DNA from: Vicinamibacterales bacterium | GTDB taxonomy: Bacteria > Acidobacteriota > Vicinamibacteria > Vicinamibacterales > UBA8438 | Direction: 5' to 3' | DNA: 64,000 bases | Assembly: GCA_965229825.1 (NCBI GenBank) | Contig: CBDDJQ010000005.1 | Coordinates: 106,350-170,349 of the forward strand | Part shown: piece after piece, positions 12,689 to 34,815 of the stretch | How positions within the stretch are numbered: the stretch's first letter is position 1 | Layout: the number at the start of each line of letters is the position of its first letter | Program-made: the position numbers and the translations under genes | The notes under the pieces: generated by a model | What the model saw: only the letters and a program-made list of their open reading frames with translations | Databases searched by the model: none | What the model was told of the DNA's origin: nothing

Positions 12689-15084
12689 GATGCTTTCCTC
12701 ATCTGGAACGGCAGGCTCTCGACCACTCCGAGAATCAGCGACGAGAGACGGTAGTCGTCCTCCTGCGCGGCCCGGAGAATGGTCCGGATGGCCGGCGCAT
12801 CGGTATGCGCGACCCCGCGTCCGGTCGCGAACGTCAGCAGCTTCTCGGCCACCGTGCCCACGAAGAGCTCCGGGCGCCGCAACAGCGCCGCCTCGAGCTC
12901 GTCGACGCCGTCGACGGTCGTTCCGTCGAAGAGCGTCGCCGCGGCGTCGATGGGCATCCCCTCGTCCGCGTCGCGCCAGCGCCCGACCGCGTCGTAGTTC
13001 TCGAGGGCGAACCCCACGGGGTCCATCAACTGGTGGCAGCTCGCGCACGCGGGGCTCGCCCGATGCGCGCTCATCCGCTCCTTCATCGAGCGGGCGCGTG
13101 CGCCCGCCCCCGTGTCCTCAAGCTCGGGCACGTTGGGGGGCGGCGGGGGCGGAGGCACCCCCAGGATGTTGTCGAGCACCCACTTCCCCCGGATGACCGG
13201 CGAGGTGCGCGTCGCATAGGAAGTCGCCAGCAGGATGCTGCCCTGTCGCAGCAGTCCGCCCCGGGTCCCCCCCTCGCCGAACTCGACCCGGCGGAACCGG
13301 CTGCCATAGACGTGCGGCACGCCGTAGTGCTTCGCCAGCCGCTCGTTCAGATAGGTGTAGTCGGCCCGCAGCAGGTCGAGAACGCTGCGATCCTCCCGCA
13401 GGACGCTCTCGACGAGCATCTCCGTCTCCTGCCGGAACGCCTGCCGCAGGTTGTCGTCGAAATCGGGAAAGGCCCGCATGTCCGGGGTAATCGACTCCAG
13501 ATTCCGGAGATGCAGCCACTGGCCGGCGAAATTGGTGACGAGGTTCGAGGCGCGCGGGTCCGCCAGCATCCGGCGCACCTGCCGCTCCAGCACTCCCGGA
13601 GCGGTCAGCTCGCCCCGCTCGGCCACCGCGAGCAGCTCGTCGTCGGGAATGCTGCTCCACAGGAAGAAGGACAGCCGCGACGCCAGCTCGAGGTCGCTCA
13701 AGCGATACGCCGCGCCCGCCTCGACGCCCTCGGGGTCGCGCTCGACCCGGAACAGGAACTCGGGGCTCACCAGCACCGCCGCCAGCCCCATCTCGATGCC
13801 GGCATCGAATCCGTCCTCGTCCCGAGCCGCACGGTACAGCGCGAACGGCCGCGCGAGATCCGCCGCGGTCACCGGACGCCGGTAGGCCTGCCGCATCAGG
13901 GCGGAGAGAATGTCGGTGGCGCAGGCATCCTCGGCGGCCGCCGCGGCCGGCTGGCAGGTGAAGATGCGAGCCCGGCTCGGGGTGTCGCCGGCTCCGGCGG
14001 GGTTGTAGGGACCGACGATGGAGATCTCGTACACCGCCGGCTGCACCCGCGGGTGCCGGTAGTAGTTGAAGTGCGCCTCGTACGGCTGCCGCTCGGTCTC
14101 GAGCAGCAGCTCCGGCTTCTTGGGAAAGGTGACGGCCAGCGCATGAGGACCGGCCGCGACCGCCACCCGTCGCGTGAGGTGCGCATCGAGCGTGTCGTGC
14201 GACGGTTGGTAGTTCAACGCATGCTCCGCGACCTGCTCCGCCGGGTGCACCGTAAAGGCCTCCACCAGCTCACCGTCGAGCAGCAGATGCAGGTCGTGCG
14301 ACTCGCTCAGGCCCTCGATATGCTCGTTCCGGTCGCGGGCCAGCCGGACGCTGATCTCGTAGTCGCCGTCGACCGGAAAGGTATGCGACAGCAGGACCCC
14401 GCCGCGGGTGCCGATGGGCATCCCGGGCAGATGGCCTTCCTGCGTCAGGTCGGGTCGGGTGCGGATCGTGATGCCGCCGGGCCCCAGACCGGGACGCCCG
14501 ACCGCGAGCCGGCTGATCTTCTCGGCCGCCGAGACGTACCGCTCCAGCAACGTGGGCGAGAGATTTCCGACGGTGATGTTGTCGAACCCGAAGCTGGACG
14601 AATCGCTTGGGAGCAGGGCGGCCACGTCGACCTCGAGGGCCAGCAGATCCCGGACCGCGTTGTGATACTCGGTGCGGTTGAGCCGCCTGAACGTCTCCGA
14701 GCGTCCCGGGTCCGGGGCCGCCGCGGCGTGGCGATCCAGGGCTGCTTCCAGCGATGCGATCGCCGCCGCGTACGCCGATTCGTCGGGCCGGCGCGCGGCG
14801 GCCGGCGGCATCTGCCGGGCGCGCAGCTTCCGGACGACCCGCTCCCAGACCTCCGTATGGTCGGCCAGCGCTTCTTCGGCGATCGTGTCCAGGGCGAGAC
14901 CGGCGGTGCGGGTCCGGCTGTTGTGACACGACAGGCAGTAGCGGCTGACCAGGGTCTGATGCGCGTCCTCGGCCGGCGGGGCGCCGGTCGCCGGCGCGGC
15001 ACCGAGGGTACCGGCGAGACTGCCGGCTGCCAGCATCCCCGCCAGACTCGGGCGGAGTCTCCAACGTCGCCTCGGTTTGAGCAT
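12685..15084 (-). CDS. DUF1592/DUF1585/DUF1587/DUF1588/DUF1595-type (planctomycete-cytochrome-like) protein with two CxxCH motifs
   Basis: 799 aa. N-terminal YCLSCHNSRT...RARQMPP and C-terminal ACASCHQLMDPVGFALENYDAVGRWR. This is the usual genomic partner of DUF1552. Confidence 0.85.
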   Translation of the reverse strand: MLKPRRRWRLRPSLAGMLAAGSLAGTLGAAPATGAPPAEDAHQTLVSRYCLSCHNSRTRTAGLALDTIAEEALADHTEVWERVVRKLRARQMPPAAARRPDESAYAAAIASLEAALDRHAAAAPDPGRSETFRRLNRTEYHNAVRDLLALEVDVAALLPSDSSSFGFDNITVGNLSPTLLERYVSAAEKISRLAVGRPGLGPGGITIRTRPDLTQEGHLPGMPIGTRGGVLLSHTFPVDGDYEISVRLARDRNEHIEGLSESHDLHLLLDGELVEAFTVHPAEQVAEHALNYQPSHDTLDAHLTRRVAVAAGPHALAVTFPKKPELLLETERQPYEAHFNYYRHPRVQPAVYEISIVGPYNPAGAGDTPSRARIFTCQPAAAAAEDACATDILSALMRQAYRRPVTAADLARPFALYRAARDEDGFDAGIEMGLAAVLVSPEFLFRVERDPEGVEAGAAYRLSDLELASRLSFFLWSSIPDDELLAVAERGELTAPGVLERQVRRMLADPRASNLVTNFAGQWLHLRNLESITPDMRAFPDFDDNLRQAFRQETEMLVESVLREDRSVLDLLRADYTYLNERLAKHYGVPHVYGSRFRRVEFGEGGTRGGLLRQGSILLATSYATRTSPVIRGKWVLDNILGVPPPPPPPNVPELEDTGAGARARSMKERMSAHRASPACASCHQLMDPVGFALENYDAVGRWRDADEGMPIDAAATLFDGTTVDGVDELEAALLRRPELFVGTVAEKLLTFATGRGVAHTDAPAIRTILRAAQEDDYRLSSLILGVVESLPFQMRKAS

Positions 15085-28971: not shown

Positions 28972-29829
28972 TCAGGAGCGACCCGGCCCGTTCGACGACT
29001 GGACCGAGGGCGACTGGAAGGGGCTGGATCGGGGTCCTGGTCTCCCGCCTTCCTCACCGGGCAGCGTATAGGTTCCCGGCCGCAACCCGACCACGAAGCT
29101 GCCGTTTCGCAGCGACGGCTTGTTGTAGCGCAGCGTGCCCGGATGGGGCTCGGGGTGGCCGGAGTGGCGGTGGACGCAGTCGCCGGCCGCGACGTCCCAT
29201 TCCATGGTCGGCCCGAGCCGCGGGTAGACGTCCGCCCGACCTTCGGCGACCACGCAGAACTTCAGCGAGCTGCCGCGTTTGACCCGCTCGACCACGGTCA
29301 GCGGCTCGAGAAACGCCTCGAGGGCCGCGGTGGGATGGGACCGGCTCTCGACGACGCGGAGCGGGTCGGACGGGCTGGACAGGGTCGACCGCAGGCGCCG
29401 GGGCGGACCGCTTGCCTCGCGCTTCCACGCGCCTTCCCCGACGCGGGCGTAGTACAGCAGCCCCGCGGCGGGCGCCGCCACCACCCCGAGGACCGGCTCG
29501 CCGTCCTCGATCAACGCAACGTTGACGGTGAACTCGCCGTTTCGGTTGACGAACTCCTTGGTCCCGTCGAGGGGGTCGACGAGCCAGTAGCGGGACCACC
29601 GGCGACGCACCTCGTAAGGCGGTATCTCGTGCTCCTCGGACAGATACGGGACCGCGGGGTCCAGCGCCGTCAGTCCGTCGCGCAGGATCGCGTCAGCCGC
29701 GAGATCGGCCCCGGTCACCGGCGATCCGTCCGCCTTCGCCCGCACCCACGTGTCGCCGGCGTCGTACCGTTTCAACACCAGCGCGGCGGCGCGTAGCGCC
29801 ACCTCCTTGACGGCTTCCAGGGTCACCAT
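28972..29829 (-). CDS. cysQ: 3'(2'),5'-bisphosphate nucleotidase
   Basis: Inositol-monophosphatase-fold motifs: YLSEE, WLVDPLDGTKEF, GEFTVNVALIE, KFCVVAEGRADVYPR, EWDVAAG. Confidence 0.8.
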   Translation of the reverse strand: MVTLEAVKEVALRAAALVLKRYDAGDTWVRAKADGSPVTGADLAADAILRDGLTALDPAVPYLSEEHEIPPYEVRRRWSRYWLVDPLDGTKEFVNRNGEFTVNVALIEDGEPVLGVVAAPAAGLLYYARVGEGAWKREASGPPRRLRSTLSSPSDPLRVVESRSHPTAALEAFLEPLTVVERVKRGSSLKFCVVAEGRADVYPRLGPTMEWDVAAGDCVHRHSGHPEPHPGTLRYNKPSLRNGSFVVGLRPGTYTLPGEEGGRPGPRSSPFQSPSVQSSNGPGRS

Positions 29830-30087
29830 GGGCCCAAGTGTAGCGGCCCGAGCCCGAAGGACGGCGGTTCCGGCGGCAGGTTCGATTCGCCGTCGAGCAC
29901 GCCGCCGACGAAGTCCGCACGATTCGCGAGGTGCACCGGGTAGGATGTGATTACGCCGCGCCCCGAGCGCGGGCTCAAGGGCCGGCCCGGCGATCTCCTC
30001 CCGCGCGTCGAGAGGCTCGACCGGTCGCAGGGAACGGATACTATCGACAAAATGCCAGAATCACTCGGACAGGTTTTCGACTGGCCC

Positions 30088-30117
30088 TTGACGCGCGGTG
30101 TCGCCGTAGGGTAAAAA
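30088..30117 (+). promoter_or_regulatory. Candidate sigma70-type promoter TTGACG-N18-TAAAAA directly in front of the poly-Cys leader ORF
   Basis: Hexamers at 30088-30093 and 30112-30117. This is the only AT-rich patch in the divergent cysQ/sir intergenic region. An imperfect inverted repeat TCGACAAAA(30044-30052)/TTTTCGA(30074-30080) lies just upstream. Confidence 0.3.
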
Positions 30118-30120
30118 AAG

Positions 30121-30213
30121 ATGGTTGTGATGTTGCTAGCACGAACCGGCTGTTGTTGCTGCTGTTGTCCGGAGGCCGCCGAGGCCCCCACGCTGACGGT
30201 CGTGTCGAGGTGA
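30121..30213 (+). CDS. Candidate leader peptide MVVMLLARTGCCCCCCPEAAEAPTLTVVSR with six consecutive Cys codons
   Basis: ATG at 30121. Cys codons TGT TGT TGC TGC TGT TGT at 30151-30168. TGA at 30211-30213. An intrinsic terminator follows 48 nt later, and the sulfite-reductase/siroheme operon lies downstream. Confidence 0.55.
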   Translation: MVVMLLARTGCCCCCCPEAAEAPTLTVVSR

Positions 30214-30261
30214 TGCACAAGCGCAAGTAGAGCCGGCAAGCACCAGCGCGAGAGACCGAAA

Positions 30262-30292
30262 GCCCGGGGCCACAAGGCCCCGGGCTTTTTTT
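30262..30292 (+). terminator. Rho-independent terminator (attenuator candidate)
   Basis: GCCCGGGGCC-ACAA-GGCCCCGGGC, a perfect 10-bp GC stem, followed by TTTTTTT. It lies 170 nt upstream of the first operon gene. Confidence 0.8.
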
Positions 30293-30305
30293 GTTGACCC
30301 CCGGC

Positions 30306-30362
30306 GGCGGGCGATCACCAAGACGGCGGCAATCGGAGCCGCAGGCGACGATTTCCGGGCTA
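30306..30362 (+). repeat. REP-like repeat, copy C (module 1 only)
   Basis: ...GGCGGCAATCGGAGCCGCAGGCGACGATTTCCGGGCTA is nearly identical to the core of the 48263-48312 copy. Confidence 0.65.
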
Positions 30363-30462
30363 GGATCAATGGTCGACGGTCGCAACACGCCAGCCGCGCC
30401 GGGGAGATGCATCACGACACGCGACGGCGCGCGCGTTTCCATCCGGATCACCGCTATCGGCC

Positions 30463-31065
30463 ATGTCAACACGGGCGACGACGCCGCTCTTTCCGGCGTT
30501 CCTCAAGCTGACGAACCGGCCGGTCACGGTGGTCGGAGGCGGGCTCGTGGCCGCGTCGAAGCTCCGGGCGCTGCTCGATGCGGGGGCGCGCGTGACCGTG
30601 GTGGCGCCGGACGTCACGGCCGAGATCGCCGGGAGCGGCGTGGCCATCCGCCGCCGCCGCTTTCAGGCGTCGGATCTGGAGGGTGCGTGGCTCGCGGTCG
30701 CAGCGGCGCCACCGGAGGTCAACCGTGAGGTCGCACTGGCCGCGGAGGAACGGCACCTGTTCCTCAACGCGGTGGACGATCCGCGGAACGCGAGCCTCTA
30801 TCTTGGAGGCGTGGTCCGCCGGGGGGGCGTCACCGCGTCGATCTCGACCGATGGCCGGGCGCCGGCCCTGGCGGGGTTGATTCGGGAGGCTATCGAGGCG
30901 CTGCTGCCCGAGGACGAGGTGCAACGGTGGCTGGCCGCCGCGGCGGAGCAGCGGGCCGGATGGATCGCCGGCCGCGTGCCGATGGAACGGCGCCGGCCGT
31001 TGCTTCTGCGGGCGCTGGCCGCTCTCTACGACGATCGGACGTCGACCGAAGACCACAAGGGATGA
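30463..31065 (+). CDS. Precorrin-2 dehydrogenase / sirohydrochlorin ferrochelatase (CysG N-terminal-like, siroheme synthesis)
   Basis: FLKLTNRPVTVVGGGLVAASKLRALLDAGARVTVVAP (Rossmann fold) and NAVDDPRNASLYLGGVVRRGGVTASISTDGRAPALA. Confidence 0.8.
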   Translation: MSTRATTPLFPAFLKLTNRPVTVVGGGLVAASKLRALLDAGARVTVVAPDVTAEIAGSGVAIRRRRFQASDLEGAWLAVAAAPPEVNREVALAAEERHLFLNAVDDPRNASLYLGGVVRRGGVTASISTDGRAPALAGLIREAIEALLPEDEVQRWLAAAAEQRAGWIAGRVPMERRRPLLLRALAALYDDRTSTEDHKG

Positions 31066-31922
31066 GACCTCGACCGCAGCAACCGGCAGCGCACGTTCGA
31101 AGGCAGGTGACCGGCGTCGCGGGCGCCGGCCGCGAACCGGACCTGACACCGGGATTCGTGTCGCTGGTCGGGGCCGGCCCGGGGGACCCGGCGCTGTTGA
31201 CGGTGCAGGCGCTGGATCGTCTGGGGACGGCCGATCTGGTGCTCTACGACGCCCTTGTGGCCCCCGAGATCCTGGCGTTGGCGAGCCGGGCGCAGCGCTT
31301 CTGTGTCGGCAAGCGGGCGGGCCGCCGGTCGGTGCGGCAGGACACCATCATCCGCATCCTGGTCCGAGCCGCCCGCCGCGGCCGCCGCGTGGTCCGGCTG
31401 AAGGGCGGCGACCCGTACGTGCTGGGGCGGGGTGGTGAAGAGGCCCTGGCCCTGCGGAGCGCCGGAATCCGGTTCGAGGTGGTGCCGGGGCTGACGACCG
31501 CGATTACCGTTCCGGCCCTGGCCGGGATTCCCCTGACCCATCGCGGCGTCGCCTCGGGATTCACCGTCGTGTCCGGACACGACGAATCGAGCTTTCGGCC
31601 GGTGCTGAGTGCGCTGGCCCCGGGCTCGCTGACGATCGTCGTGCTGATGGGGTTGGCCCGCCGCGCCGCGGTGGCGGCTTGCCTGCTCGACCGCGGCTGG
31701 CCGGCGGACACCGCGGCCGCAATTGTGTGCGCGACCGTCTCGCCGCGAACCCGCGCCTGGATCGGGACGCTGGGACAACTGGGGGCGGCCCCCCACCCGG
31801 CCGCCCCCGATACCCCCGGCACGATCGTCATCGGCAAGGTCGTCGAGCTGCAGGCGCTGCTCGACGAGACGAAGCCGGATGCCGCGGCCGGGGTCGAACG
31901 AAAGGGCTGGAACTCACGATGA
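31062..31922 (+). CDS. cobA: Uroporphyrinogen-III C-methyltransferase (SUMT)
   Basis: VSLVGAGPGDPALLTVQALDRLGTADLVLYDALV, VVRLKGGDPYVLGRGGEE and VVPGLTTAITVPALAGIPLTHRG. ATGA overlap with the upstream gene. Confidence 0.85.
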   Translation: MRPRPQQPAAHVRRQVTGVAGAGREPDLTPGFVSLVGAGPGDPALLTVQALDRLGTADLVLYDALVAPEILALASRAQRFCVGKRAGRRSVRQDTIIRILVRAARRGRRVVRLKGGDPYVLGRGGEEALALRSAGIRFEVVPGLTTAITVPALAGIPLTHRGVASGFTVVSGHDESSFRPVLSALAPGSLTIVVLMGLARRAAVAACLLDRGWPADTAAAIVCATVSPRTRAWIGTLGQLGAAPHPAAPDTPGTIVIGKVVELQALLDETKPDAAAGVERKGWNSR

Positions 31923-34195
31923 CCTGGAAAGACAGACTCGGCGACCGCATCCCGGCAGAGCTGGCGCGGGAGATCGACACCTTCGAGAACCAGATCGCCC
32001 TCAAGCGCCAGGGCCGAATCGACGACAAGGTGTTCGCGGAGACGCGCCTGCGGCGCGGCGCCTACGGACAGCGCTACGACAACGGGCAGCGGAACGACGG
32101 CAACGGGGTCAAGACGCTCGCGTTCCCCTCGAACGGCCGGACCAAGGGTCCCGACACGGTCTGGGACGCTCCCGGCATGCACCGGATCAAGATCCCGTTC
32201 GGCGGGGTGACCCCCGAGCAGATGGACACCCTCGCCGACCTCGCCGAGGAATACAGCGACGGAATCTGCCACATCACGACCCGGCAGGACGTGCAGCTCC
32301 ACTTCGTCCAACTCGACGACACCCCGTCCCTGATGCGCCGGCTCGCGGCGGTCGGCATCACCACGCGGGAGGCGTGCGGCAACAGCGTGCGCAACGTCAC
32401 CGCCTGCCCCCTCGCGGGCGTCTGCCGCGACGAGACGTTCGACGTGACCCCCTACGCCCGCGCGTCCATGCGGTTTCTGCTCGGTCATCCCGATGCCCAG
32501 GACTTCGGCCGCAAGTTCAAGGTGGCGTTCTCGGGGTGCCGGCAACATGCGTGCGGTCTCGTCAACATGCATGACTTCGGGGCGATCGCGGTGACCCGGG
32601 AGACCGGCGGGGGCACGCAACGCGGATTCGAGGTGCACGTCGGGGGCGGCCTCGGCGCGGTGCCCCACGAGGCCAGGCTGTTCGATCCGTTCATGGCCGA
32701 GGCCGAGGTCCTCCCGACCCTGCAGGCTATCTCGCGGGTGTTCGCGCGGCTGGGTGAGAAACGCAATCGGGCTCGCGCCCGCATCAAGTTTCTGGTCGCC
32801 CAGCTCGGGATCGACGAGTTCCGGCGGTTGGTACAGGAGGAACGCCGGCTTCTGGCCCACGACGAGCGCTGGACCGCTCATCTCGCCGATCTGTCGTCCG
32901 CGGCCGAGCAGCCGCTGAAGGATGGTGAACCGCTCGACGGGGAACGGAACGCACCGGGCTTCGCGGCCTGGTCCCGCTCGAACGTCTATCGCCAGCGCCA
33001 GCCGGGATACGCGGTGGTGACGGTGAGCCTGCCGCTGGGCGACATCGGCAGCGATCAGCTGCGGCGGCTGGCCGGCGTCGCCCGCCGGTTCGTCGGCGAT
33101 ACGGTGCGGACCACCGTCGAGCAGAACATCGTGCTGCGCTGGGTGCGCGAGTCGGACCTGCCCGCGTTGCATCGGGAGCTGGACGCCATCGGCCTGGGCC
33201 GGCCCGGCGCGGAATCGATCGGCGACATCACCGCGTGCCCGGGCACCGACACCTGCAAGCTCGGGATCGCCTCGTCGCGGGGACTGGCGGCCGAGCTCGA
33301 GGGGCGCGTGCGGCAGCAGATGGACACCCTGGACGACGCGGTCCGCCAACTGCGGATCAAGGTCAGCGGATGCTTCAATTCGTGCGGCCAGCACCACATC
33401 AGCGACCTGGGGTTCTACGGCGTGAGCCGGCACGTGCGGGGGCGGGTGGTTCCGCACTTTCAGGTGGTGCTCGGCGGCAAGTGGGTCGACAACGGCGGGG
33501 CCTACGGACTTGCAATCGGGGCGGTGCCGGCCCGACGGATTCCGGAAGTGGTCAAACGGATCACGGATCGTTTCGTGCAGGACCGCCACGCGGCGGAGAC
33601 GTTCCACGCGTTCACGACCCGGATCGGCAAGCGAGCGCTGCGCGGCATGATCGAGGACCTGATGGCAGTGCCCGACTACGACGCGGCGCCGGACTACTAC
33701 CGCGACTGGGGCGACCCGCGCGAGTTCGGAATCGGCGACATGGGAGTCGGCGAATGCGCGGGCGAGGTCGTGTCGTTGACCGAGTTCGACCTGGTCGGGG
33801 CCGAGAGCCAGGTGTTCGAAGCCCAACTCGAGCTCGAAGCGGGCAACGTCGCGCAGGCGGACGCGCTCGCCTACGGGGCGATGCTGCAGGCGGCCAGAGG
33901 CCTGATCAAGACCGAGTTCATCGACATCCCGGACGACCCGGATCGCATCGTCGCCGAATTCCGGACCCGCTTCTTCGACAGCCGGATCTTCTTCGATCGG
34001 TTCGCCGGCGGGAAGTTCGCGCAGTACCTGTTCCGGCGGCACGCCCGCGGCGGGCCGCCCGCCGGTGTCGACATGGTGCGGCAGTCGATCGAAGAGGCCC
34101 AGCTCTTTCTGGAGGCCACCCACGCCTGTCAGGCACGGCTGGCCGGCGCGCCGGTGACGGCGGGCGAGGCAGCCGTCTCCAGGAGTCCCGCGTGA
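31919..34195 (+). CDS. sir: Ferredoxin-type assimilatory sulfite (nitrite/sulfite family) reductase, 758 aa
   Basis: TTRQDVQLHFV, REACGNSVRNVTACP, and the siroheme/4Fe-4S cluster motif ITACPGTDTCKLG...SGCFNSCGQHH. ATGA overlap with cobA. Confidence 0.9.
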   Translation: MTWKDRLGDRIPAELAREIDTFENQIALKRQGRIDDKVFAETRLRRGAYGQRYDNGQRNDGNGVKTLAFPSNGRTKGPDTVWDAPGMHRIKIPFGGVTPEQMDTLADLAEEYSDGICHITTRQDVQLHFVQLDDTPSLMRRLAAVGITTREACGNSVRNVTACPLAGVCRDETFDVTPYARASMRFLLGHPDAQDFGRKFKVAFSGCRQHACGLVNMHDFGAIAVTRETGGGTQRGFEVHVGGGLGAVPHEARLFDPFMAEAEVLPTLQAISRVFARLGEKRNRARARIKFLVAQLGIDEFRRLVQEERRLLAHDERWTAHLADLSSAAEQPLKDGEPLDGERNAPGFAAWSRSNVYRQRQPGYAVVTVSLPLGDIGSDQLRRLAGVARRFVGDTVRTTVEQNIVLRWVRESDLPALHRELDAIGLGRPGAESIGDITACPGTDTCKLGIASSRGLAAELEGRVRQQMDTLDDAVRQLRIKVSGCFNSCGQHHISDLGFYGVSRHVRGRVVPHFQVVLGGKWVDNGGAYGLAIGAVPARRIPEVVKRITDRFVQDRHAAETFHAFTTRIGKRALRGMIEDLMAVPDYDAAPDYYRDWGDPREFGIGDMGVGECAGEVVSLTEFDLVGAESQVFEAQLELEAGNVAQADALAYGAMLQAARGLIKTEFIDIPDDPDRIVAEFRTRFFDSRIFFDRFAGGKFAQYLFRRHARGGPPAGVDMVRQSIEEAQLFLEATHACQARLAGAPVTAGEAAVSRSPA

Positions 34196-34815
34196 ACACC
34201 ATCGCATCCGCCGCACCGGACGCCACGACCGTCCAACGCATCGCCCTGAAGCTCTTTCTCGACGAGCAGTCGGTGCTCTCCCCGCGTGACGTCATCCCGG
34301 TGTTCCATCGCTGGATCCAGACCCGCGCGGTGGACGGGCTTCTGATCGACGTCGCCGACTACACCCATCTTCCCACCGGCCCCCTGGTGCTCCTGGTGGG
34401 TCACGAAGGCCGATACGTTCTCGACCGCAGCGAGGACCGGCTGGGGCTGCAGTACCTGCGGACGCAACCGCTGGCCGGGCCGCTGGACGCCCGGTTGCGT
34501 ACGGTCGCGGGGATGCTGCTGCGCGCCGCCCGGCTGCTCGAAGAGGATACGGCTCTGACCGGGCCGGTACGCTTCCGCGGTGACGAGATCGAGTGTGTCG
34601 CGAACGATCGTCTCCTGGCTCCGAACACGCCGGACACGTTCTCGGCCGTCCGTCCGGCCTTCGAATCGTTGCTCGCGGTGCTTTCCGGCGGCGCATCCTG
34701 GACCCTGACCCCCCACATCGGGCCGGGGACGCGCTTCGGCATCCATGCGGGCACCCCCGCCGGGACGCCGGTCGAGACCCTCCGCAGACGGCTGGATTCC
34801 GGGACCGGCTCCTGA
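34192..34815 (+). CDS. Conserved hypothetical protein (207 aa) translationally coupled to sulfite reductase
   Basis: The GTG at 34192 overlaps the sir stop (GTGA), with AGGAG at 34181-34185. The sequence looks like a coherent globular protein (IALKLFLDEQS...LLIDVADYTHLPTGPLVLLVGHEG...). Confidence 0.6.
   Translation: MNTIASAAPDATTVQRIALKLFLDEQSVLSPRDVIPVFHRWIQTRAVDGLLIDVADYTHLPTGPLVLLVGHEGRYVLDRSEDRLGLQYLRTQPLAGPLDARLRTVAGMLLRAARLLEEDTALTGPVRFRGDEIECVANDRLLAPNTPDTFSAVRPAFESLLAVLSGGASWTLTPHIGPGTRFGIHAGTPAGTPVETLRRRLDSGTGS

Follow-up and report, generated by a model that had tools for sequence, protein, structure and literature searches.

Why should six consecutive cysteine codons stand in a short open reading frame (ORF) that is followed by an intrinsic terminator, and why should both lie in front of genes for sulfite reduction? 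The question is raised by a locus of a Vicinamibacterales bacterium (Acidobacteriota; assembly GCA_965229825.1), within a window of 64,000 nucleotides (nt) of contig CBDDJQ010000005.1 (forward-strand positions 106,350 to 170,349); the window is the whole stretch of DNA that was analysed, and position 1 is its first letter. An initial annotation of this DNA had read the element as a candidate ribosome-mediated cysteine attenuator. We found this reading supported by about 50 conserved leaders and by a covarying antiterminator helix of -26.2 kcal/mol, and we put at roughly 80% the probability that charged tRNA-Cys is sensed here by a leader-peptide transcription attenuator of the ribosome-mediated type, which controls the sulfite-reduction/siroheme operon. 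Those defining features of such an attenuator that can be tested in silico are present at the locus, namely an ORF with Cys codons, a terminator, a conserved antiterminator and the matching geometry. The parts of the leader on which the argument turns are as follows.

30088 to 30093, plus strand: -35 hexamer TTGACG
30112 to 30117, plus strand: -10 hexamer TAAAAA, at a conserved position
30127 to 30213, plus strand: leader ORF counted from the conserved GTG, 28 codons plus TGA
30151 to 30168, plus strand: six Cys codons TGT TGT TGC TGC TGT TGT (the regulatory codons), a run unique in the window
30171 to 30188, plus strand: hairpin P1 (regions 1:2), GGaGGCC / GGCCCC with loop GCCGA, from RNAalifold, -11.1 kcal/mol
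30183 to 30201, plus strand: region 2 (GGCCCC..GCU..CGGUC), which lies towards the 3' end of the ORF and supplies the 5' strand of the antiterminator, from duplex prediction, folding and covariation
30197 to 30216 with 30236 to 30258, plus strand: long-range helix P2, from RNAalifold, enclosing the stop codon and a variable loop
30211 to 30213, plus strand: stop codon TGA, 9 nt past the end of region 2
30254 to 30271, plus strand: region 3, GACCGAAAGCCCGGGGCC (GACCG AA AGC CC GGGGCC), pairing with region 2 or region 4
30259 to 30292, plus strand: intrinsic terminator with a stem of 13-14 base pairs (bp), an ACAA loop and T7 at 30286 to 30292, -28.4 kcal/mol

The hexa-cysteine ORF is present just as it was first described: counted from ATG 30121 it has 30 codons (30121-30213), encodes MVVMLLARTGCCCCCCPEAAEAPTLTVVSR and carries its Cys codons in the order given above. 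The window has a single 18-nt run of TGY codons and 100 dinucleotide shuffles yielded none, so the run is more than chance. Cysteine makes up only 0.84% of the codons in the 28 coding-like ORFs of the window. The expectation that TGT would be the minor codon was borne out, as it accounts for 9.8% of the Cys codons in the window genes (12 vs 111), against four of the six in the window leader (binomial p = 0.0012) and 67% of the Cys codons in all leaders (Fisher p = 3e-27, a value computed over leaders that are not independent of one another). The last two Cys codons (30163-30168 in the window) read TGT TGT in 42 of 46 leaders, which may slow their decoding by a single tRNA-Cys through G:U wobble.

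Comparison with the related leaders described below suggested that this ORF is decoded. The relatives carry between three and seven Cys codons, and the length of the run always varies by whole codons. Inside the run of the family-A alignment, variation is mainly between T and C at the third position; the last three Cys codons are invariant in this family, and those upstream vary, occasionally becoming Arg or Ser codons through first-position and rarely other changes. Past the run, the variable columns of the 13 gap-free family-A sequences are four second, one first and one third codon position, with all remaining third positions invariant. Third positions that stay fixed while second positions change are the opposite of what is expected of a protein under purifying selection, and fit a constraint imposed by RNA pairing. 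Frameshifts of +2 in two leaders (L015, L016) alter the C-terminus of the peptide and still leave a stop within region 2. The family-A consensus CUGACGGUCGUGUGAGGUGA (30192-30213 in the window) offers UGA in each of the three frames within 20 nt, so that the frameshifted L015 and L016, as well as the window leader (+1, by an extra C), stop in or just past region 2. The peptides of other families are unrelated beyond the Cys run. To judge from the codons, the evidence favours decoding over peptide function: the leader ORF would be translated, and the peptide does not appear to be the part that is conserved.

The Cys-run ORF and its terminator are kept upstream of sulfur genes in the relatives. 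We fetched and examined 80 genome loci around sirC homologues, and in 18 Vicinamibacterales loci the Cys-run short ORF and the same terminator stand directly upstream of sirC; about a dozen more have the leader 1-3 kb upstream of sirC, before inserted genes. Two more leaders (L019, L030) came from a covariance model and three loci of Terriglobia type (L062, L063, L067) from a generic scan, and one Myxococcaceae metagenome-assembled genome (MAG; L028) also has such a leader. Altogether, about 50 related sequences from Vicinamibacteria, Terriglobia, the Myxococcaceae MAG and metagenomes share one layout, in which a promoter is followed by a start codon 7-14 nt past the -10 hexamer, three to seven Cys codons, P1, the terminator and sulfate-assimilation genes. 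The stretch between terminator and gene measures from about 15 to about 300 nt and is not conserved. The initial annotation had tied the leader to sir and siroheme genes, and this specificity did not hold, since the leaders of relatives precede cysH, DUF2061-cysH, TauE-cysH, cysH-sat/cysC, cysD or sir.

The generic scan covered both strands of 897 kb of fetched DNA and called any short ORF with a run of at least three Cys codons that is followed by a strong terminator. It returned 52 matches, of which all but one precede sulfate-assimilation genes. From the run to the T tract there are 83-132 nt, a range that narrows to 108-132 nt once two matches are set aside. For metagenomes we used a pattern that is free of Cys codons (GACGGTC, a gap, CCCGGGG, a gap and CCGGGCYTTT). 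Fourteen of its 62 matches were leader-like, and all fourteen carry Cys codons that end 25-27 nt before GACGGTC, twelve as a run of at least three and two (L101, L119) as interrupted runs. The other 48 were evident chance matches (gene 3' ends and other RNAs) and have no run of at least three Cys codons. As every leader-like match to a Cys-free pattern carries Cys codons, Cys run and RNA motif occur together. On these results we attach a negligible likelihood to a mere juxtaposition, in which a fortuitous ORF would lie beside the terminator of some other transcript: the shuffles do not yield the run, no minus-strand gene ends at the leader because cysQ is transcribed away from the region, and the layout is kept over all of the lineages named above.

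On one metagenome contig (L087) we observed a second poly-Cys short ORF (…ATCCCCCRCCCAAAVAVRTADNIWSSTPVT) with a strong terminator of its own, at 1130-1300 on the minus strand. It lies about 1.2 kb from the cysD-associated leader of the same contig, in the opposite orientation, and precedes a gene with PSCyt1 and PSD3 domains (planctomycete cytochrome c / DUF1587); it is the only Cys leader that we found before a gene without an obvious role in sulfur assimilation.

A unit that has its own promoter and a strong terminator could also be a small gene in its own right, either an RNA of about 165 nt or a functional poly-Cys micro-protein, for example one that binds thiols or metals, or both, whose position before the operon would be incidental or which would act in trans. 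Trans functions have been documented for rnTrpL and peTrpL of Sinorhizobium (PMC7968998, PMC7298713), the peptide tail PEAAEAPTLTVV looks conserved within family A, and the second unit of L087 precedes a gene unrelated to sulfur assimilation. However, with one exception the roughly 50 units immediately precede sulfate-assimilation genes and are oriented like them, and the distance from terminator to gene can be as short as about 15 nt. The tail, moreover, is conserved as nucleotides, with invariant third positions and nonsynonymous changes; frameshifts are tolerated in L015 and L016, and in the other families the tails are unrelated while the RNA pairings persist. We therefore regard an independent small gene as improbable, and return to the attenuator and the RNA structures that it would require.

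The terminator called in the initial annotation at 30262-30292 proved to be sound, in its stem as in its T7. The stem (30258/30259-30288/30289) comprises 14 pairs, ten of them G-C, and starts 48 nt past the stop codon; the terminator ends 170 nt before the operon ATG at 30463. All of the roughly 50 leaders close in a terminator of -20 to -36 kcal/mol, made of a G+C-rich stem of 10-14 bp and at least four T. As to an alternative structure, the complementarity of GGCCCC (30183-30188) and GGGGCC (30266-30271) had been noted by eye and judged a weak pairing. The two hexamers are complementary, but the predicted pairing is not weak, since it forms the outer third of an interrupted helix of 14-15 bp between 30183-30201 and 30254-30271, the antiterminator, with the duplex energy given above. 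Region 2 of the window is the best duplex partner of the terminator 5' arm (z-score -3.8; 0 of 200 dinucleotide shuffles). Throughout families A to D, those of the Vicinamibacterales, the antiterminator duplex reaches -26 to -34 kcal/mol with z-scores of -3 to -8, at most two of 200 shuffles match its energy and in most sequences none does, and the helix begins 13-17 nt past the last Cys codon.

Two further helices accompany this switch. P1 begins 2 nt past the last Cys codon, and nearly all families have a hairpin at its position with different stems (GGACC/GGUCC, GGCCC/GGGCC, GGGGCUC/GAGCUCC); the hairpins past the run in the new metagenome families likewise have different stems. Internal loops interrupt P2, and the pairs at its base, CGGUC:GACCG, belong to the antiterminator as well. 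Folding yielded both of the mutually exclusive structures, the antiterminator appearing when the transcript ends before region 4: there it is part of the minimum free energy (MFE) structure, where it extends the base of P2 and uses up the terminator 5' arm. For the window transcript of this length the antiterminator state has -50.1 kcal/mol vs -49.3 kcal/mol for the P1 state, and at full length the terminator state has -76.5 kcal/mol (the MFE) vs -66.6 kcal/mol for the forced antiterminator. MFE folding of the full-length window leader always gave the terminator state, without any sign of a switch. According to these models, the transcript ending before region 4 would be balanced between the two states and the full-length leader would prefer the terminator.

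Two other pairings were considered and rejected. One is an additional 1:2 helix between the (UGY)n run and a CAGCAAGCA-like stretch located between the stop codon and region 3, for which the duplex energies did not surpass those of dinucleotide shuffles (z-score about 0 in most families). The other is a pairing of CCGGAGGCC, just past the run, with the terminator 3' arm; its A/U variation is not compensated by the U/C variation of the arm, and the position is better explained as the bulge of P1.

The structures also bear on the question of whether the leader might act on translation instead, as a mycobacterial-type translational attenuator in which the hairpin and U tract would not be a regulated terminator. 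The polycysteine leaderless short ORFs of Mycobacterium smegmatis are cysteine-responsive translational attenuators (Ms5788A, the 'Cys ribulon'; Canestrari et al. 2020, bioRxiv 10.1101/834739), and Ms5788A, the only poly-Cys short ORF whose mechanism has been dissected experimentally, has no intrinsic terminator, its stalled ribosome preventing a duplex that hides the downstream ribosome-binding site. The spacing between promoter and start codon suggests a similar leaderless layout for the leader studied here. Yet a canonical intrinsic terminator closes every one of our leaders, and the conserved alternative pairing targets the 5' arm of this terminator rather than a ribosome-binding site. The variable and unconserved spacer between terminator and first gene, moreover, makes sequestration of the ribosome-binding site by the leader unlikely. 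A translational device is, on this evidence, very improbable.

Support for both states of the proposed switch came from covariation. A covariance model derived from the terminator-state structure of family A aligned 40 leaders at E < 1e-6; it replaced a MAFFT alignment of families A to D, because MAFFT had put the terminator arms of families B to D out of register. The resulting alignment was fitted to the terminator state, P1 and P2, and not to the outer helices of the antiterminator. Even so, 91.3% of the cells are paired in the antiterminator state, as against 30-41% when the partners are slid by 1-3 columns, and 13 antiterminator pairs have changes on both sides; none of 500 shuffles reaches the observed values, though such counts are descriptive and not probabilities, since the sequences are related and the alignment was fitted to one structure. 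Within the antiterminator-specific helix Hb, the exchanges are CG 34 / GC 3 and UA 28 / CG 5 / UG 3. For the terminator state, to which the alignment was fitted, 95.8% of the cells are paired and 21 pairs covary. The columns of region 3 that covary with region 2 covary also with region 4 (AU 29 / GC 8, GC 33 / CG 5), so that terminator and antiterminator both covary through shared region-3 columns. P2 has 90-96% of its cells paired, with compensatory changes, and in P1 four of six pairs changed on both sides, by swaps such as GGCC:GGCC to GGACC:GGUCC and GGGGCCC:GGGCUCC to GGGGCUC:GAGCUCC; the alignment was fitted to both of these helices.

Conservation likewise defines the promoter and the probable start of the leader. 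The proposed promoter TTGACG-N18-TAAAAA is in its place and is kept in position among the relatives: TTGAC is invariant in 19 aligned relatives, most leaders have the 18-nt spacer, and columns T25, A26 and A28 of the -10 hexamer are (nearly) invariant. This hexamer reads TACAGT, TAGAGT or TAAAAT in relatives, and the family-A pattern is TAnAnn; our promoter call is based on such positional conservation, not on a strict scan. GTG 30127, located 9 nt past the -10 hexamer, occupies the same column in 18 of the 19 relatives of the family-A alignment, and the one that has lost it (L017) has an in-frame ATG one codon further on. ATG 30121 lies in frame two codons upstream of this GTG. Since no more than 3 nt separate ATG 30121 from the -10 hexamer and most relatives lack this ATG, the conserved start of the leader is probably GTG 30127. 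No Shine-Dalgarno sequence is visible in the window leader, as had been remarked, nor in the family-A, C and D leaders that we inspected. For family A and its close relatives, the distance from the -10 hexamer to the start codon is 7-10 nt, and for families C and D it is 10-14 nt. Given the absence of a Shine-Dalgarno sequence and the short distance of 7-10 nt, the leader mRNA is probably leaderless or nearly so. The earlier idea of a peptide translated from a leaderless RNA is therefore plausible, with the difference that its first codon would be GTG 30127 and not ATG 30121.

If charged tRNA-Cys is sensed by a ribosome, the position of this ribosome should decide between the two structures. 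We modelled this by masking as footprint the bases -15 to +12, counted from the first base of the A-site codon, and folding the transcript that ends before region 4 for each A-site position. In the window leader and in L005, the antiterminator remained intact (8-9 of 10 core nt paired to region 2) up to one codon past the last Cys codon, at all such A-site positions in the window and with two isolated exceptions in L005. With the A site two to three codons past the run, and from there through the stop codon, the antiterminator was abolished in both. The boundary of masking falls at the end of the run, which makes the Cys run the last place where a paused ribosome still permits antitermination. 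In these two leaders the scan agrees with the expectation, put forward in the initial annotation, that a ribosome at the stop codon masks the pairing and one stalled on the Cys codons leaves it free. When the ribosome stands on the last two or three Cys codons, the 5' arm of P1 (30171-30177) lies under its footprint too, which fits the invariance of these codons in family A.

The sequence of events that we propose is the following. Transcription would start a few nt past the -10 hexamer (30112-30117), with the ORF beginning at GTG 30127, no more than about 3 nt from the 5' end. When Cys-tRNA is ample, the ribosome would pass the six Cys codons and region 2 and reach the stop at 30211, so that region 2 could not pair; with region 2 masked, region 3 would pair with region 4, the terminator would form and RNA polymerase would halt at the T tract (30286-30292). 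When Cys-tRNA is scarce, the ribosome would linger on the Cys codons and region 2 would stay free. The base of P2 (CGGUC:GACCG) would then nucleate the helix, and region 2 would zip with the terminator 5' arm immediately on the synthesis of that arm. Once the antiterminator has formed there would be no terminator, and transcription would proceed into sirC-cobA-sir.

The same observations allowed us to weigh control by a ligand or protein, that is a riboswitch or a site for an RNA-binding protein, in which the (UGY)n run would be the binding site or incidental. Nucleotide conservation is very high and includes unpaired GAGA and AAA beside region 3, and P2 is interrupted by internal loops, both of which would suit a binding element. 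The run, however, varies by whole codons, shows T/C changes at third positions and takes occasional Arg and Ser changes, and in every leader the start codon keeps its fixed spacing from the promoter and is followed by an in-frame stop, with L017 compensating by its ATG. The unpaired conserved bases differ among families, and the footprint model switches from on to off exactly where the Cys run ends. A search of Rfam 15 with window positions 29500-30800 and E values up to 10 yielded only sub-threshold matches to the terminator hairpin, among them Thr_leader, which matches the hairpin alone (15 bits vs a gathering score of 55), and at six other leader loci no Rfam family matched at gathering thresholds. 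We accordingly give very little weight to a ligand- or protein-controlled attenuator as compared with one controlled by a ribosome.

Several points weigh against ribosome-mediated attenuation and keep our estimate below certainty. A strict sigma-70 consensus scan did not call the window promoter, because the hexamer TAAAAA ends in A and not in T. In the transcript that ends before region 4, the antiterminator is by a narrow margin the MFE structure when no ribosome is present, so that thermodynamics alone gives no default-off state; by analogy with the 1:2 hairpin of trp, which serves as a pause hairpin, P1 may act kinetically or as a pause hairpin. The antiterminator is weak in the most distant leaders (L021, L028, L029, L033 and L034; z-scores of -0.2 to -2). 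Most pairs in family A are invariant, so highly conserved is this family, and the descriptive nature of the shuffle counts belongs here as well. The ORF of families B to D and of L031 continues for 20-45 nt past region 2 (leaders L020, L022, L023 and L031), and in our model a ribosome on the distal stop (L020, L023, L031) lets the antiterminator re-form; since the distal stop leaves the antiterminator unmasked, timing must be invoked for these leaders. Finally, we infer from sequence and models where transcription starts, that the ORF is translated, that RNA polymerase stops at the T tract and that the leader responds to cysteine.

The genes around the leader fit its proposed role. As reported at the outset, the leader is intergenic, flanked by minus-strand cysQ and the plus-strand sirC-cobA-sir operon, and the domain scores bore out the gene identities.

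28972 to 29829, minus strand: cysQ, above the TIGR01331 cut-off
30463 to 31065, plus strand: sirC-like gene (CysG N-terminal domain), above the family cut-off (Pfam, NCBIfam)
31062 to 31922, plus strand: SUMT/cobA, uroporphyrinogen-III methyltransferase, above the family cut-off
31919 to 34195, plus strand: NirA/Sir-family sulfite reductase (NIR_SIR hemoprotein, 758 amino acids), best score 'NirA family protein'
34192 to 34815, plus strand: fourth operon gene, 207 amino acids, its start in a GTGA overlap with the sulfite reductase stop

The operon genes are coupled by overlaps, as had been described: ATGA at 31062, ATGA at 31919 and GTGA at 34192. The SirC-like protein has its nearest relatives in Vicinamibacterales MAGs (Acidobacteriota), at 83-90% identity. 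The 758-residue hemoprotein scores below every equivalog cut-off, and homology therefore does not settle between nitrite and sulfite; the Cys-codon leader and the cysH, cysD and sat neighbours in relatives argue that this NirA-family protein is a sulfite reductase. The 207-residue protein matched no Pfam or NCBIfam family, and its co-transcription with sir suggests a possible part in reducing sulfite or in handling siroheme.

Two groups of other sequences came to light on the contigs that we scanned. The chance pattern matches at L122:2544-2608 and L107:3424-3488, both on the minus strand, and on L121, L125 and L126 share GGTTGTCTCCTCCACCTC…GGTGGATT plus a terminator; two of them are Rfam RF02278 (Betaproteobacteria toxic small RNA) above the gathering score. 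These matches are unrelated to the Cys leader. A common, apparently structured stretch, GGAGGCTGGGTCGCG…GAAGTCAGRCGCT…GACGGTCATCCGCCCGTTACC…, which closes in a terminator, is found on L088 (at about 13440-13623), L092 and L134; on L088 it had no Rfam match at gathering thresholds.

Leader-peptide transcription attenuation is textbook knowledge for trp, his, leu, thr, phe and ilv, and in the present leader the principle is this one; the novelty lies in the amino acid, in the phylum and in how broadly the leader is conserved. Like trpL, hisL, leuL, thrL, pheL and ilvL, the leader is a short ORF with a run of end-product codons, and its six regulatory codons recall hisL, which carries seven His codons. 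It shares with the enterobacterial attenuators the four-region logic (1:2, the 2:3 antiterminator and the 3:4 intrinsic terminator) and the placement of the codons, by which a stalled ribosome frees region 2 and a ribosome at the stop codon masks it. Unlike them, it would sense cysteine, has no visible Shine-Dalgarno sequence and is probably leaderless, and it possesses the extra helix P2, which brings regions 2 and 3 together; it has no sequence or Rfam similarity to them. In Escherichia coli, cysteine control is exerted by the activator CysB rather than by attenuation.

What the initial annotation said of polycysteine leaderless ORFs in mycobacteria was correct (bioRxiv 10.1101/834739). Those ORFs and our leader have in common that they are unannotated short ORFs with consecutive Cys codons at the head of cysteine or sulfur operons, and that they use, or would use, ribosome pausing at Cys codons as the signal of scarce Cys-tRNA. 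The leaderless state has been shown in mycobacteria and is predicted here, and the mycobacterial output is translational, in contrast to the canonical terminator and covarying antiterminator that are conserved in our leaders. The one group belongs to Actinomycetota and the other to Acidobacteriota, and we liken them by layout, not by homology.

The initial annotation was aware of no terminator-coupled Cys leader before sir or siroheme genes, and in the literature that we searched none is described before sulfate-assimilation operons. For cysS there is one: uORFC-8-2, upstream of this gene in Rhodobacterales, is a predicted ribosome-mediated attenuator with tandem Cys codons and an intrinsic terminator (Brewer et al. 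2021, PMC8632094), and since a Cys-codon upstream ORF with a terminator was already predicted there, the kind is not new. Both that element and ours are computational predictions. uORFC-8-2 has two Cys codons, mostly UGC, inside its first stem and controls cysS in Alphaproteobacteria, in contrast to the three to seven Cys codons of our leaders, mostly UGU, which stand upstream of the first hairpin in a context of sulfate assimilation. Short ORFs with Cys codons before cys, cbs or cysS genes are shared more widely: candidate Cys leader peptides were described in Actinobacteria, without terminators, Rho having been proposed by the authors (Seliverstov et al. 2005, PMC1262725), and in Deinococcus deserti (de Groot et al. 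2014, PMC4007540) cysS has a leaderless leader peptide with two Cys, whose first codon coincides with the mapped start of transcription. Our search of the literature, which reached only a minority of subscription journals, gave no description of a poly-Cys leader coupled to a terminator before sulfate-assimilation operons and none in Acidobacteriota.

The leader is widespread in Acidobacteriota. Almost no regulatory RNAs are known, to our knowledge, in this abundant soil phylum, and we know of cysteine as a regulatory amino acid hitherto only through the mycobacterial translational attenuators and predictions upstream of cysS. Judged by its sequence, the leader would extend the full classical terminator/antiterminator design to cysteine. 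It also provides a searchable signature, a short ORF that holds a Cys run and is followed after about 110-130 nt by a terminator, which gave no false matches in 0.9 Mb and could seed an Rfam family. By analogy with rnTrpL and peTrpL, one may speculate further, though we think it unlikely, that the leader defines an old cysteine 'ribulon' across Acidobacteriota that reaches Myxococcota, and that the RNA of about 165 nt or the hexa-Cys peptide, or both, also act in trans; if that were true, sulfur status would be tied to other genes, for example the PSCyt1/PSD3 gene of L087. Acidobacteriota would be a second lineage in which apparently leaderless poly-Cys short ORFs arose as cysteine sensors, and, if the attenuator reading is true, such leaders would control the whole assimilatory sulfate-reduction branch in this phylum.

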